Assembly (NCBI GenBank): GCA_000004695.1
Contig: CM000150.2
Location: 1,664,001-1,728,000 of the forward strand
Direction of reading: 5' to 3'
DNA from: Dictyostelium discoideum
Taxonomy: Eukaryota
DNA length: 64,000 nucleotides
A program made the translations under genes and the position numbers. Position 1 is the first letter of the stretch. Each line of letters begins with the position of its first letter. The notes beneath the pieces are model-generated. The model did no database searches, was not told the origin of the DNA, and saw only the letters and a list, made by a program, of their open reading frames with translations. Positions 21,944 to 29,169 of this stretch are shown here, piece by piece.

Positions 21944-22060
21944 AAAAATAAAAAAATAAAATAAAAATAAATAATTAATAATAATTCCTCCCCCCCCTTT
22001 TTTTTATTGTATTATTATTTATTTATTATTTTAACATAACATTAGTTGAATTTTCATCAG

Positions 22061-22120
22061 CCGGCTTTGGCCCAATGGTAGCGCGATTGACTGTAGTATT
22101 GAAAGTGATCAATCGGTTGC
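22061..22120 (+). pseudogene. Truncated tRNA-Tyr(GUA) pseudo-copy: 5' ~60 nt of the gene with a D-stem mutation (GCCC for GCGC), no T-arm or acceptor 3' strand
   Basis: CCGGCTTTGGCCCAATGGTAGCGCGATTGACTGTAGTATTGAAAGTGATCAATCGGTTGC is near-identical to 22235..22294, including 9 bp of 5' flank (tttcatcag). It then diverges into AT-rich DNA. Confidence 0.6.
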
Positions 22121-22234
22121 AGTATAGAAAATAAAATAAATTTTTTAAAATAGAACTTTTTTTTTTTTTTAATAACATCACTCAATTTGATAAAATAGAA
22201 CCTGGACCGGTAAAAAAAATAAAAATTTCATCAG

Positions 22235-22317
22235 CCGGCTTTGGCGCAATGGTAGCGCGATTGACTGTAGTATTGAAAGTGATCAATCGGTTGCTAGTTC
22301 GAATCTGGCAAGCCGGA
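22235..22317 (+). tRNA. tRNA-Tyr (anticodon GUA) with an 11-nt intron 3' of position 37
   Basis: Cloverleaf: acceptor CCGGCTT/AAGCCGG, D-arm GCGC-AATGGTA-GCGC, anticodon stem ATTGA/TCAAT, loop CTGTAG[intron TATTGAAAGTG]A, variable CGGTT, T-arm GCTAG-TTCGAAT-CTGGC, discriminator A. A T-run follows. Eukaryotic tRNA-Tyr genes universally carry an intron at this position. Confidence 0.85.
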
Positions 22318-22324
22318 CTTTTTA
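22318..22324 (+). terminator. Pol III terminator T-run after tRNA-Tyr
   Basis: cttttta directly after the discriminator base. Confidence 0.5.
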
Positions 22325-23651: not shown

Positions 23652-24221
23652 CAATAAATAAATAACATTTATTATAAAACAAATTAATTTATTTAATTTT
23701 ATTTGTTATATATAATTACCAAAATAGTAACAATTTATTATTTTTTTATAATATTCTCTCTTTCTTTATTTCTATTGATATTGCTATTGCTATTAATTTT
23801 TTAATTTGTAGTTGTTTGTTTAATTAAAATAAGTCATCTGTTGACCTTCTCAACTGTTATTATTTGATAATTTCTTTTCTTGGATTGATACATAATCCTT
23901 CATATGATTAGACTTACTGAATCAATTACCGAATAACCAAACTTTTTTCTAAATTTTTTTTTATTTTATCGTTGTAACTAGGAGTGTTACTTTCACTTTG
24001 GTAGAGGTATCTTTCCAATTTCCAAGATTTCTGTGGTAGTTCTCTTGTCTTTAGGTTTCATAAGTTTAGGCAATCATTGATATAGTTGTTTTGTCTTCTT
24101 TGTGATAGAAATTTAATCAAAAAATCAAAATTTTTTTCAAAAAAAAGGCTCCTATGACAATTTAATCAAAAAATCAAAAAATTTGAGTTGGTTTTACCAA
24201 AAAAAAAAAATATTCAAAAAT

Positions 24222-24293
24222 GGCTCCTTAGCATAGTGGTATTGCGCTTCCCTAGTAAGGAAGAGGTCATGAGTTCGATCCTCATAGGAGCCT
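24222..24293 (+). tRNA. tRNA-Thr (anticodon AGU)
   Basis: Acceptor GGCTCCT/AGGAGCC, D-arm GCAT-AGTGGTA-TTGC, anticodon stem CTTCC/GGAAG with loop CTAGTAA, variable AGGTC, T-arm ATGAG-TTCGATC-CTCAT, discriminator T, then TTTTTTTT. Confidence 0.85.
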
Positions 24294-24301
24294 TTTTTTT
24301 G
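24294..24301 (+). terminator. Pol III terminator (T8) after tRNA-Thr
   Basis: tttttttt immediately 3' of the tRNA. Confidence 0.6.
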
Positions 24302-24320
24302 AAAAAAATTTTAAAGTCGA

Positions 24321-24332
24321 GGGTTCGAATCT
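24321..24332 (+). promoter_or_regulatory. External B-box (GGGTTCGAATCT) ~28 bp downstream of tRNA-Thr
   Basis: Near-perfect copy of the B-box consensus outside the tRNA body. Confidence 0.55.
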
Positions 24333-24399
24333 TGATTGGAAATGAATTAGTTATCATTGTACAGAAAAAAGAAATAAACGAGAATTTATACATATAATA

Positions 24400-27300
24400 A
24401 ATAAATCACTGTTATATCTTCACCGCCACATTCATTCCTCTTAATTTTACCCTTTTTTTGCTCAATAAAGCAAGGGCTATCGTCTTCTATACTTTTCAAC
24501 AATGGCTGGTGATCACTCAACTGAATTACAGTTAAATCATACAGATAACATCACAACCAATACAAATAATACCTCCACAACCTCAACAACAAAAAACAAA
24601 AGTGCAAAAATCGACACACCTGAAAAACAAACCCCAACAAACCAACTCTCACTAAACAAAGGACTTGATAATCAATTAGATATCATTGCACCTCCATCAA
24701 TCACAAGACCACTCTCTTTCTTAGAAAAAAACAATAACACCATCAACATTAAGTGTTACTTTAATCAACCACACATCCTTGAAGAATTAACCTCTAAAGA
24801 TGACACAAGAATCCAACAAATTCACAAAAACATTCACAAACTCTTCGAAGATATACTGTCGCCATCAGCATTTAAAATAATTGGTGCAACTGCCTTCGTA
24901 AATTGCAACGTTGATAAATTAACTTCAATAATCAACCTTCAAAACCAACTTGCACTAAATATAGACAAACTCAATAATGAAATTTCACACAAAAGTGATT
25001 CTTCAAATAATAATAACGGGAAAAACTCATTATCAATGAGCAATCCAACCGATCCAACAATTGTACCACAAAAACCTCTACAATCCCAACCAAACAAACC
25101 AAGTGCACCAACTCCAAATACAATAAATACAAGAAGAAGCAGCAATGCCCTGACTACACAACCAGTCAATACTGGTGCTGCCAAACCTAGTAAGGTATGA
25201 GCTCAAAAATCAACTTTATAACATGGAATTGTAGAGGATTCACTGAAAACCCAAACAATCAACACAATTCCTACCAAAAAGCTGTTGACACACTACAACT
25301 ACTTATATCAAAACTTCCACCTCGTCCAACAATCTCAATACTCACTGAACTCAATTCATCACCATTACAACTTAAACATTATTTTCCCGATCACATCATC
25401 TCTGTCACCAAACGAGGAAATGGTGTAATCATCATTAACCATAACCCAAACACACTCAAACTCAAACACATATCAACAATTGATATTACCAATCAATCCC
25501 AAAACAATAAAGAAATTTCACACAAAAGTGATTCTTCAAATAATAATAACGGGAAAAACTCATTATCAATGAGCAATCCAACCATGGTAGAGCTATTTTA
25601 GCAGACGTTATATTTCCAAATCAATTACCAATTGGTATTCTTGGAATTTACGCACCAGCATCAAATAATACCATCAAAAAGAATTCATATGCAACTTCAC
25701 TACAAACACTTCTCCACAACCACTCAACAAACCCAATACCAAACCAATCCCAACATGTATCTATTATCGCAGGAGATTTCAACTCTATCCACAACGACAA
25801 TTCACTATAAGATGATATTATCCAATCCTACACATACCAACACCATTTAATTGATCAAGGTGAATTTAAAAACACTCCAACTCATACACATGGCAACAGA
25901 TTAGATAGAATATATACTCAATACAATAGAATAGACCCTGAAAATATATATACACAAGTCCACCAAATTCCATCTTCATTATCAGATCATAATCCAACCA
26001 TGAAGCAATCAATATTATCAATCATTTAATAACTAATCACAATAACACATCAATCAATCAATTTACAAACTGGTCAAAAGTAAAATCAAAAATTATTAAA
26101 ACTCTAAAAAACTATCAATATAACAAAGACAAACAAACTCAACGTTCAAAACAAATACTATTAGGAAAAGCAGCAAAATTCAAACATCTTGAAGAACAAT
26201 GCATCGCTGAATACAATATTATATGTAACAAAAACAAATTACATCAAAACCACACAAACATATTAAAAAAACATATAAATGGAGAAATACCTTGCAAGTA
26301 TCTATCAGCAATACTAAACAAAAGATCAAAACATGCAAAAATTGAATCAATCCAATATGGTAACATCATTACATCCGACCCCGACCAAATTGAAAATGCG
26401 TTTGTTGAATTCTACACAAATCTATATAGCTTACAAATATGTTGTCCAATTACTCACCAGCTCATGCCAAACACATGGCCCATCATAAAAAATGAATATT
26501 TGAATGGTTTAGACTCACCATTTATACAAGATGAAGTTGAAGCTGCAATTAAAACCTGTAACCCCAACGAATCACCCGGTCCAGATGGCGTTACAAATGC
26601 TTTCTACTTTAATCATTTAAACCAAGTTAAACCAATTCTCACTACATTATTCTACGATATACTAGAAAATCCTCACCACATCACAACAGAATTCACCGAA
26701 GGTCTTATACACACAATATACAAGAAAGGCAACCCCTTACTCATATCAAATCGTCGTCCCATTACACTTCTAAACACTGATTACAAGATCCTCTCAAAAG
26801 TAATCAATGCACGTCTTCTGAGAATACTTCCTTTCATCATCAACAACAACCAAACTGGTTTCGTACCCCACAGATTCATCATAGACAACATCATCAACAT
26901 CAATGAATAAATCAACTACCTCAAATCTAAAAACCTCCCTGGTATAATCACACTATTTGACTTCTTTAAAGCATTTGATTCTATCTCTCACCTTGTTTTA
27001 ATACTATCAAAAGAACATTAATTCATATTGGTATACCAATAAAATTAATAAATTTAATCCACAAGCTATTATTTGATTCACAAGCAAAAATTTCAATTAA
27101 TGGTAAAACCACCAGAAAATTCGATATTAAAAGAGGTGTAAAACAAGGTGACCCAATCTCAGCCACTTTATTTGTAATTGTAATTGAAATATTAGCAAGA
27201 ACAATAAATGCAGACAATACAATAATTGGATTACCAATTTCATCCAATCCACAAATTAAAATCAAATTTACCCAATTTGCAGACGAATCTACAACATACA

Positions 27301-28745
27301 ACATCAACTACGAACAACAACAATCAATCAAACATTTCGATAATTTATGTGCTAAAACATCATCATCATTAAATTTTGACAAAAGTGCAATAATAGAAAT
27401 CAACCCCCACAAAATCACTGATAAACACATAATAAACAACGTTCCACAATCAAAAAGAATACCAATAACCAAAAAAGATTAATCAGAAAGAGTCCTAGGC
27501 TATTTCTTTAATAATAATGGTTTACATAGGAAATTACCAGAAACAATGAAAACACTGAATAAATCATTAGTACTATGGAAAACTAGTGGCACACCAATAA
27601 CATATTTATCATACCTTGAAGAATTTACAAAAGATGAAGAAATTCAAATTAATAAATTAATCTCATGGTTTATGAATTCCGCAAATTCTGAATCACCAAC
27701 TCTCAATACCAATTCCATTGAAAACAACACATCAACCATCCATTCACGTGCAAAATTACCTTTGATGTGTTATGATAGATCATTAAAACCATTAAAAGAA
27801 GGTGGTTGGGGTATGTGGAATATACAATTACGAAAAGTTGCTCAAAAGAATTGGATATACAACAGATTTTTACAAATGCATATATCTGCAAACAATTCAA
27901 TATACATGATAAGTTGGATGGATCAAATCATCAACAAATCAATCTCTTCTCCATACCTTATAAAAATTAAAAAAGAATGGGAAAACTATGCAACTCAAAT
28001 TGGACATCTAAAAGATAAAGTTAAAATCCTACAACCAATATTAATAAAAAATCAAACCTCTCAAACATTAACCACAAATAATATTCCACTACCACCAACA
28101 CTCAAAGAAATCTACTCGACAATACTCAACAATCACCAATGTAAATCAAAAGACTATATTGGCAAGAAATATTCAGATCTACTTCTTACTTCGCACCAAC
28201 AATTAATACAACTATTATGGAAATACACATACGACCAACTATTTGTCAAAATTCAAAAATTAAAAGATCCAAAAGGCCGTGATACAATGCAAAGATTCCA
28301 TGCTAGATGTCTTCCGATTAATCACCTACACAACAAAGTTTGCCCCATTTGCAACAATGAAATGAATAATGATCCCTATGGTCATTTGTTTTTCAATTGT
28401 CAGCACACAATCAACTTCATAAACCACGACAAATTAAAATATTTTATATATAAAAATTGCAATGGAAACAAAAACTGGTCACTAACAAAAAACCAAACAA
28501 CAAAATTATACACTCATTTATAAACCACAAACAAACAACAAAGCATTTAAACCAGATCCAACTATCATGAATGGGGGGAGGAGACAGGGGACAGGGGACA
28601 GGGGACAGGGGGGGAGATTTGAAGTTTTTTTTTAAATTTTTTAGTCAGTTGCAAATACAAATACATTGGCATATAATAAATAAAACTATTGATTGGAGTG
28701 AAATAAATAATCCAATAAATAAAAGAGAAAAAAAAAAAAATTCCG
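24400..28745 (+). mobile_element. TRE3-like tRNA-gene-targeted non-LTR (LINE) retrotransposon, inserted ~100-200 bp downstream of tRNA-Thr; degenerate copy. Boundaries are approximate.
   Basis: ORF1 24502..25200 (T/N/P-rich, 232 aa). ORF2 starts at 25197 overlapping ORF1 with the APE N-terminus MSSKINFITWNCRGF. The APE C-terminal half is in another frame (IIAGDFNS ... RLDRIY ... SDHNP, ~25590-26040). RT motifs are split over frames: 26464..26910 has PGPDGV ... YKKGNPLLISNRRPITLLNTDYKILSKVINARL, ~26950 has FDFFKAFDSISH, and ~27100-27190 has RGVKQGDPISATLF. The C-terminal CCHC zinc knuckle is CPICNNEMNNDPYGHLFFNCQH (27546..28523). Multiple frameshifts and stops interrupt ORF2. There is an A-run near 28726. 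Confidence 0.65.
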
Positions 28746-29169
28746 AATGAATAAATAAAATAAATCAACTTCCATTAATATTAATATTAAAGAAAAAAAA
28801 AAATTAAATATATAATTCCAACAAACAATTATTTTTAAAAATTAAAGAGTGGAAGCTAAATTTGGAATGTTAAAAGATTTTTGTGTCAGATTTTTTATTA
28901 AAAAAAAAAATTAATTTAATAATAAATTGTATATTAAAAAAAACATGACCACCAATGATTATGAAAACGTTTTAAAAAAAACACGTATTTAAAAATGAAA
29001 AATTATCTTGAAAAAATGAGTTTTTTAACAAAATTATGTGACTTTTTTTAAGTTTTGGCATAGGGTTTCCTTTTTAGATTAACAAAAAATATTGCAAAGT
29101 TGGTTATATTCAATAACAATATTAAAAATGGTTAATTTATCTTAAAAAATCGATAAAAAATTAATAATG

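Follow-up and report, generated by a model that had tools for sequence, protein, structure and literature searches.

Our analysis of a 64-kb window of the Dictyostelium discoideum genome (the window being the whole stretch of DNA that was analysed) points with high confidence to a fossil copy of a TRE3-group retrotransposon of the kind that lacks long terminal repeats (non-LTR), most likely of the TRE3-B subfamily, just behind a tRNA-Thr(AGU) gene. About 4.2 kb is left of an element of about 5.3 kb, and the copy is dead, being no longer able to encode an endonuclease or a reverse transcriptase (RT). Seven full-length sister copies (loci L002-L008), found by exact-protein look-ups, define its family, here called F1, and the F1 consensus against which the window copy is read was built from these seven. 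The tRNA gene, its B boxes and the two open reading frames (ORFs) of the element are arranged as follows:

24222..24293, + strand: tRNA-Thr(AGU) gene, the RNA polymerase III (Pol III) target (ARAGORN; Rfam RF00005, 65.5 bits)
24266-24281, + strand: internal B box of the tRNA-Thr gene, an exact consensus match
24316..24331, + strand: external B box (ex-B) GTCGAGGGTTCGAATC, an exact consensus match 23 nt past the tRNA end
24365..28567, + strand: degenerate, 3'-truncated TRE3 non-LTR retrotransposon of family F1, probably TRE3-B (alignment to the full-length copies L002-L008)
24365..24501, + strand: remnant of the 5' untranslated region (UTR) (comparison with the 5' junctions of L002, L003, L005 and L006)
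24502..25200, + strand: ORF1, open, 232 amino acids (aa), beginning 209 bp after the tRNA; the consensus ORF1 has 402 aa
25197..28523, + strand: ORF2 pseudogene with APE, RT and zinc-knuckle regions, now spread over three frames (three-frame translation)
28341..28400, + strand: zinc knuckle CPIC-x10-H-x4-C (CCHC) (motif scan)

The element starts 71 bp past the tRNA-Thr gene and 33 bp past the external B box, in the same orientation as the tRNA, and its DNA is 97-99% identical to the full-length F1 copies. In alignments to the family copies homology to F1 stops at 28567, the sequence beyond being unrelated. The extent of 24400-28750 given by the first-pass annotation of this DNA must accordingly be replaced by 24365-28567, but its other structural claims held up well: ARAGORN and Rfam agree on a tRNA-Thr(AGU) ending at 24293, the external B box claimed at 24321..24332 is a consensus match at 24316-24331, an ORF1 starting about 200 bp past the tRNA is found at 24502, and the APE, RT and CCHC motifs of an overlapping ORF2 were all recovered, over three frames and in agreement with Pfam. 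The TRE3-like arrangement and orientation that it proposed are borne out both by the placement of the element and by the F1 sister copies.

Some 25 nt of the variable full-length 5' terminus (GAAAAAACGAAAAAAAAACCGAAAAAAC...) are absent from the window copy. The 3' end of ORF1 reads GTATGAGC, where its TGA stop overlaps the ATG of ORF2 (ATGA), with ORF2 in the -1 frame; a Pfam search of the window ORF1 returned no domain. The endonuclease motifs of ORF2 are NFITWNCRG (25212-25238), GDFN (25772-25783) and SDHNP (25982-25996), and those of the RT are PGPDG (26575-26589), FFKAFD (26962-26979) and RGVKQGD (27132-27152). For Pfam and protein searches we used a conceptual ORF2 of 1105 aa, stitched together across the three frames, which matches Exo_endo_phos (6e-9, ~25218-25990) and then RVT_1 (9e-25, ~26722-27398), both over the curated cut-offs. 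This stitched protein is 89% identical, over its full length, to D. discoideum DDB_G0291958 (1275 aa) and likewise 89% identical to GenBank 'pol' AAD43057.1 (1275 aa), and one of its matches is a gene model on L001, the same locus in assembly GCA_054883475.1; the best proteins from outside Dictyostelium are at most 31% identical. A repeat search of the element gave no terminal repeats. Composition also sets the element apart, as the G+C (GC) content of the 64-kb window runs from 12 to 35% in a composition scan in which 24-29 kb stands out at 27-35%, and the element itself has 29-35% GC versus 12-26% in its flanks, with a + (coding) strand rich in A and C.

The sister copies supply the intact form that the window copy has lost. 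The F1 consensus measures ~5305 bp without its A tail (the copies span 5275-5313 bp depending on the variable 5' end) and holds an ORF1 of 402 aa and an ORF2 of 1275 aa, which again overlap at ATGA, ORF2 lying in the -1 frame; it carries none of the window copy's lesions. Three of the seven copies are identical to the consensus, so F1 has been active recently. The consensus ORF2 is near-identical to GenBank 'pol' AAD43057.1 / UniProt Q9Y1H5 (both 1275 aa). The F1 protein clusters have 13 and 29 members, with at least seven gene models of 1596 aa. Apart from 'pol', the cluster members of F1 and F2 all go by the name 'hypothetical protein'; searches of literature full text found no mention of the F1 protein gene identifiers (IDs), AF134169-71, AAD43057 or Q9Y1H5. 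Upstream of five of the seven full-length copies ARAGORN places a tRNA gene in the same orientation, less than 90 bp away and at 30-49 bp where the junction is measurable, and these five genes are Lys-UUU, intron-containing Tyr-GUA, Thr-AGU, Leu-UAG and Pro-UGG. One F1 copy has a second copy in tandem and several have other TRE3-type fragments behind them. F1 junctions carry A13-A25 tails and target-site duplications of 10-17 bp, which junction comparison gives as:

L002: target-site duplication TTTTAGTATTACCAAAA
L003: target-site duplication GATTCTAGATAG
L004: target-site duplication TAAATCGGGTCAA
L005: target-site duplication CGAAGCTCGG
L006: target-site duplication TTTTTACGAA

Placement downstream of tRNA genes and co-oriented with them, together with target-site duplications and oligo(A), gives F1 the TRE3 pattern. 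TRE3 elements are known to lie 40-150 bp downstream of tRNA genes (PMC5911963), or 34-188 bp in the case of TRE3-B (PMC5006619), sharing the orientation of the tRNA and using an internal or an external B box (PMC5911963; PMC5006619). The 71 bp that separate the window copy from its tRNA gene fall within both ranges, the element has the two ORFs of TRE3 with APE, RT and zinc finger in this order in ORF2, and an internal as well as an external B box lie upstream of the insertion. Both boxes match the 16-nt Dictyostelium consensus GTCnnnnGTTCRAnYC, taken from PMC3159450, and they are the only two exact matches in the 64-kb window, for which shuffled sequence gives an expectation of 0.04. A T8 terminator run lies behind the tRNA-Thr gene at 24293-24300. 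The acceptor pair of this gene is T7-A66 (24228 and 24287) versus A7-T66 in two other tRNA-Thr(AGU) genes (L004 and L009), which on comparison of the three sequences reads as a compensatory double change, and the tRNA gene itself looks healthy. The locus thus shows a tRNA-Thr gene and an external B box that remain intact beside a decayed TRE3.

Within the TRE3 group we consider F1 to be probably TRE3-B, a view drawn from element lengths, the neighbourhood of gene IDs and copy abundance, while a TRE3 of the TRE3-A (Tdd-3) subfamily is unlikely but has arguments of its own. Published consensus lengths and copy numbers are 5229 bp and 67 for TRE3-A, 5279 bp and 43 for TRE3-B and 4734 bp and 29 for TRE3-C (PMC5006619 Table 1). 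TRE3-A is the commonest TRE3 (PMC5006619), and F1 is itself abundant, with many intact copies as its clusters and its gene models of 1596 aa attest, which speaks for TRE3-A. Against this stands a second D. discoideum family, F2, whose copy in L009 measures 5228 bp without its tail between 16-bp duplications, again downstream of a tRNA-Thr gene, and which fits TRE3-A better both in this length (5228 versus 5229 bp) and in its larger protein clusters (79 ORF2 members and 37+12 ORF1 members, D. citrinum proteins included). Depending on the placement of its variable 5' end F1 measures 5279-5305 bp, an uncertainty of 26 bp, and it is longer than F2 by 50-77 bp, in parallel with the 50 bp by which published TRE3-B exceeds TRE3-A; F1 being the longer and F2 the shorter, as in the published lengths, F1 fits TRE3-B and F2 fits TRE3-A. 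The two families are clearly distinct, with ORF2 proteins only ~36% identical, DNA identity of 65-69% in the few alignable stretches, an ORF2 of 1059 aa in F2 versus 1275 aa in F1, and separate ORF1 clusters. Gene IDs point the same way, as dictyBase labels DDB_G0291686 'TRE3-B ORF2' (PMC12405889) and the adjoining ID, DDB_G0291688, is an F1 gene model that lacks the C-terminal part of ORF2; the two F2 ORFs in this region bear other IDs. No table that labels an F1 gene ID itself was found, the supplements of PMC12405889 included. A third family, F3, is 33% identical and has the 3' end CCGCTTTTAGGT(A)n; its copy in L010 is a mosaic without a recognisable 5' end or target-site duplication, and our guess is that F3 is TRE3-C.

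Several points weigh against the assignment of the window element to TRE3 and to TRE3-B. The evidence that makes F1 TRE3-B is indirect. Tiny F3 fragments ending CCGCTTTTAGGT(A)n lie beside F1 in L002 and L005, with another in L003, and they resemble what we take to be an association of Tdd-3 (TRE3-A) with RED in the 1990 literature, RED presumably being the former name of TRE3-B and a repeat often found beside Tdd-3; were F3 RED, this would favour F1 as TRE3-A. In two full-length F1 copies the distance to the tRNA gene is 30-32 bp, slightly short of the 34 bp published as the minimum for TRE3-B. Recognition through the B box and TFIIIC has been shown experimentally for TRE5-A only. Lastly, the window copy has neither oligo(A) nor a target-site duplication, and its own mode of insertion is read from the sister copies.

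The same loci hold other traces of TRE3 activity. F3-type 5'-truncated inserts of ~16 nt (...ACACCGCTTTTAGGT) plus an A tail, each with its own 12-14-bp duplication, occur at L002 8175-8205, L005 6672-6700 and L003 15-50, where they sit directly behind full-length copies or within a B-box-like GGTTCAATTC, which shows that the same target site is used repeatedly. Full-length F1 copies also bear varied extra nucleotides at their 5' ends within the target-site duplication (L002 2829-2850; L003 1331-1338), and those of the first L002 copy include the B-box-like GGTTCAAATCC. This suggests 5' transduction of the flank of the donor locus, with transcripts that start upstream of the element.

The condition of the window copy was scored by aligning it to the seven-copy F1 consensus. 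There are 79 substitutions in ~4080 positions (1.9%), of which 34 run from G/C to A/T and 19 from A/T to G/C, and all codon positions are affected; judged from the alignment, this AT-biased pattern is the one expected for neutral decay in this genome. In ORF1 an in-frame deletion of 510 bp (170 codons) lies between 24971 and 24972, with CAA microhomology at the junction. The lesions of ORF2 and of the 3' end are:

25483..25583, + strand: 101-nt frame-shifting insertion in the endonuclease domain (repeat search and alignments)
25808-25810, + strand: in-frame stop TAA (consensus TTA; alignment)
25996..25997, + strand: 79-bp frame-shifting deletion just 3' of SDHNP
26908-26910, + strand: in-frame stop TAA (consensus TTA; alignment)
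26992..27008, + strand: inverted 17-mer CTTGTTTTAATACTATC in place of GATAGCATT, net +8 nt, frame-shifting (alignment)
27276..27290, + strand: RT active-site FADD changed to FADE (D-to-E) by C>A at 27287
27312/3 and 27678/9, + strand: in-frame 3-bp deletions (consensus alignment)
27480-27482, + strand: in-frame stop TAA (consensus CAA; alignment)
27591..27592, + strand: in-frame 45-bp deletion (consensus alignment)
28509/10, + strand: 2-bp frame-shifting deletion, which brings up the stop at 28521-28523
28567..28568, + strand: 3' truncation breakpoint, the final 537 bp of the consensus being gone

That ORF2 is broken had been recognised in the first-pass annotation, but its counts of at least three frameshifts and two in-frame stops need revision to four frame-shifting indels (+101 at 25483-25583, -79 at 25996/7, net +8 at 26992-27008 and -2 at 28509/10) and three TAA stops, each of the latter one substitution away from the consensus codon. 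Its cautious 'probably dead' can be put more strongly, as the 3' UTR and oligo(A) are also lost and FADD has become FADE. Without coding capacity for endonuclease and RT, and missing the 3' end that is needed for reverse transcription, the copy is immobile in cis and in trans.

Some of these lesions record their own history. The 101-nt insert is a copy of ORF1 sequence (consensus ~1136-1236), of which the last 79 nt duplicate 24972-25050 (99% identity) and the first 22 nt derive from the ORF1 stretch that is now deleted in the window copy, so the duplication from ORF1 into ORF2 preceded or accompanied the 510-bp deletion. It is absent from all other recovered family copies (the seven full-length and two partial tandem ones). 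Together, the ORF1-derived insert and the ORF1 deletion could be template-switch scars from reverse transcription. The 17-mer CTTGTTTTAATACTATC, which replaces 9 nt, is the reverse complement of the neighbouring GATAGCATTAAAAGAAC at 14/17 positions. At the other end, the missing 537 bp comprise ~142 ORF2 codons and the 110-nt 3' UTR, and the oligo(A) has gone with them. BLAST found no further piece of F1, F2 or F3 in the 64-kb window, which means that no nested insertion has displaced the missing 3' end; and because non-LTR copies are made from the 3' end, its loss must be a deletion after insertion that also took the downstream duplication. A search around the window copy gave no target-site duplication, the terminal 537 bp and the oligo(A) being lost. 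One candidate, the 9-mer TTGATTGGA (24331 and 28688), was dismissed as a chance match with no A tail adjacent.

The remaining explanations fare poorly when set against these observations. The layout of APE, RT and zinc knuckle is common to all TREs and to many L1-like long interspersed nuclear elements (LINEs), and it would thus suit a TRE5 element or another LINE that came to lie near a tRNA gene by chance; yet the window element is downstream and co-oriented, the reverse of TRE5, five of the seven full-length F1 members repeat this placement at different tRNA genes, and with the nearest proteins outside Dictyostelium at no more than 31% identity we give such an origin hardly any credence. 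Retained function or domestication of the copy is also most improbable, be it through the 232-aa ORF1, a 325-aa C-terminal ORF, or an ORF2 read by programmed frameshifts. ORF1 is indeed still open, the 510-bp deletion happening to be in frame, and a -1 frameshift between ORF1 and ORF2 is normal in TRE3-A and TRE5-A (PMC5911963), but three TAA stops, four frame-shifting indels, FADE, the 101-nt insert and the loss of the C-terminus and 3' UTR burden ORF2, the intact F1 consensus is free of such features, and the substitutions, AT-biased and spread over all codon positions, are those of neutral decay.

That the indels and the truncation are artefacts of assembly or sequencing deserves a thought in any repeat, as repeats are often misassembled and homopolymer lengths do differ between assemblies at 29194-29236. 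However, locus L001 of D. discoideum GCA_054883475.1 matches the window at 99.7% over 15 kb and is identical to it base for base from 24024 to 29193, all rearrangement junctions included, so that every rearrangement of the window copy is reproduced in a second independent assembly and an artefact is scarcely credible. Over more than 5 kb around the element the two assemblies differ in nothing but the length of the poly(A) tract to which 29194-29236 belongs.

From the fossil and its relatives, the history of the TRE3 copy can be proposed. An active F1 element would have been transcribed and its RNA reverse-transcribed into the chromosome via target-primed reverse transcription, landing, in the orientation of the tRNA, 71 bp behind the tRNA-Thr(AGU) gene and 33 bp behind ex-B, with the choice of site presumably guided by Pol III factors on the B boxes, as the TRE literature would lead one to expect. 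Neutral decay may then have brought the A/T-biased substitutions (~1.9%), while microhomology-type deletions, the internal ORF1-into-ORF2 duplication and the small inversion would have accumulated; last, the 3' end would have been deleted along with the oligo(A) and the target-site duplication behind it.

Several known systems can be compared with the element. TRE3-B, with a consensus of 5279 bp and 43 copies (PMC5006619), is like it a two-ORF non-LTR element with APE, RT and zinc finger that lies co-oriented downstream of tRNA genes, and its size agrees with that of full-length F1; next to an intact TRE3-B the window copy has lost 510 bp from ORF1, 79+45+3+3+2 bp from ORF2 and the terminal 537 bp, and it has gained a 101-nt duplication, an inverted 17-mer and three stops. 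With TRE3-A (Tdd-3) it shares the integration niche, the orientation, the two ORFs and the -1 frame of ORF2, whereas the ORF2 of its family is only ~36% identical to that of F2, the family that here fits TRE3-A. TRE5-A (DRE) and other TRE5 elements are likewise L1-like non-LTR retrotransposons with the same order of ORF2 domains and Pol III genes as targets, but they insert ~50 bp upstream with the 5' end facing the tRNA (PMC3159450), unlike the downstream, co-oriented window element. Skipper-2 (DGLT-P) uses the region downstream of tRNA genes by convergence (PMC5006619), though it is an LTR/Ty3-gypsy element with integrase and chromodomain; neither LTRs nor an integrase occur in the window element, whose endonuclease is of the APE type. 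Dead mammalian LINE-1 copies likewise arose by target-primed reverse transcription and have decayed neutrally through substitutions, indels and truncation; LINE-1 is usually 5'-truncated and inserts at near-random sites, in contrast to the window copy, which is nearly complete at its 5' end, was 3'-truncated after insertion and is placed at a Pol III gene.

The TRE3 family was described in the 1990s, the genome is a curated model and that of the best-studied Dictyostelium species, and what we report is an ordinary dead copy of an element from a long-known D. discoideum family. The window copy is one of 150 catalogued TRE3 insertions (PMC5006619 Table 1). TREs are a textbook case of retrotransposon survival beside Pol III genes in a gene-dense haploid genome, to which this copy adds nothing new; its value is that of a dated fossil of the lesions that kill a TRE3, namely microhomology deletions, internal duplication, quasi-palindrome inversion and 3' loss.

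The point of 3' truncation coincides with the start of a G-rich run, TGAATGGGGGGAGGAGACAGGGGACAGGGGACAGGGGACAGGGGGGGAG, of which neither the window nor any of the loci analysed holds a second copy:

28568..28616, + strand: unique G-rich junction sequence with GGGGACA repeats, starting right at the breakpoint and outside the element

This run may be filler DNA or the G-box of a downstream promoter. On its 3' side follows ordinary AT-rich spacer, which extends as far as 29320, where the next gene lies. The tRNA-Thr gene has an NmrA-like and an Erf4-like gene as neighbours, and upstream of the latter is the long poly(A) tract (29170-29236) whose length is not the same in the window and in GCA_054883475.1.

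The more unusual feature of the locus lies upstream of the tRNA-Thr gene, where a 28-nt insert at 24131-24158 (TTTTTTTCAAAAAAAAGGCTCCTATGAC) repeats, inverted and without a mismatch, the 3' end and trailer of the gene (24282-24308/12). This mini-copy has the composition TCATAGGAGCC-T8-G-A7, thus running past the T8 terminator, and bears the private A66 variant of the window tRNA-Thr gene. On both sides of it stands a direct repeat of 17-21 nt, AATTTAATCAAAAAATC(AAAA), at 24110-24130 and 24159-24179, and the mini-copy lies at -43 to -63 of the tRNA-Thr gene with its A-run distal to the tRNA, which is the position and polarity of a TRE5 insertion (PMC3159450). No inverted tRNA-trailer copy was found upstream of seven other tRNA genes. 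A TRE5-type endonuclease/RT primed on a read-through pre-tRNA-Thr transcript in place of its own RNA might have left such a mini retro-copy, an origin that we hold to be rather doubtful; equally well, snap-back repair after an aborted integration could have produced the insert. If the former were true, a tRNA-targeting LINE would have mobilised a Pol III transcript in trans, and the mini-copy would preserve this event at the very site that the LINE targets. For evidence of trans-templated TRE5 events, the inverted copy could merit a genome-wide survey.

Further upstream, an intron-containing tRNA-Tyr(GUA) gene occupies 22235-22318 (Rfam 57.8 bits), for which ARAGORN gives a 4-base 'gtag' anticodon. 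Its 5' flank and first ~60 nt recur 186 bp upstream (22049-22123) at 96% identity, without the 3' part of the tRNA, and downstream of the gene there is a degenerate B-box-like GGTCGATTCG with no TRE attached. Between this gene and the tRNA-Thr gene, a 36-nt island at 23937-23972 matches, at 94-97% identity, the 3'-terminal stretch of a repeat in L002, L003, L008 and L009. In these four loci the repeat lies upstream of tRNA genes in the opposite orientation; nothing around 23937-23972 is similar to it, and the island is probably a remnant of a TRE5-type element.

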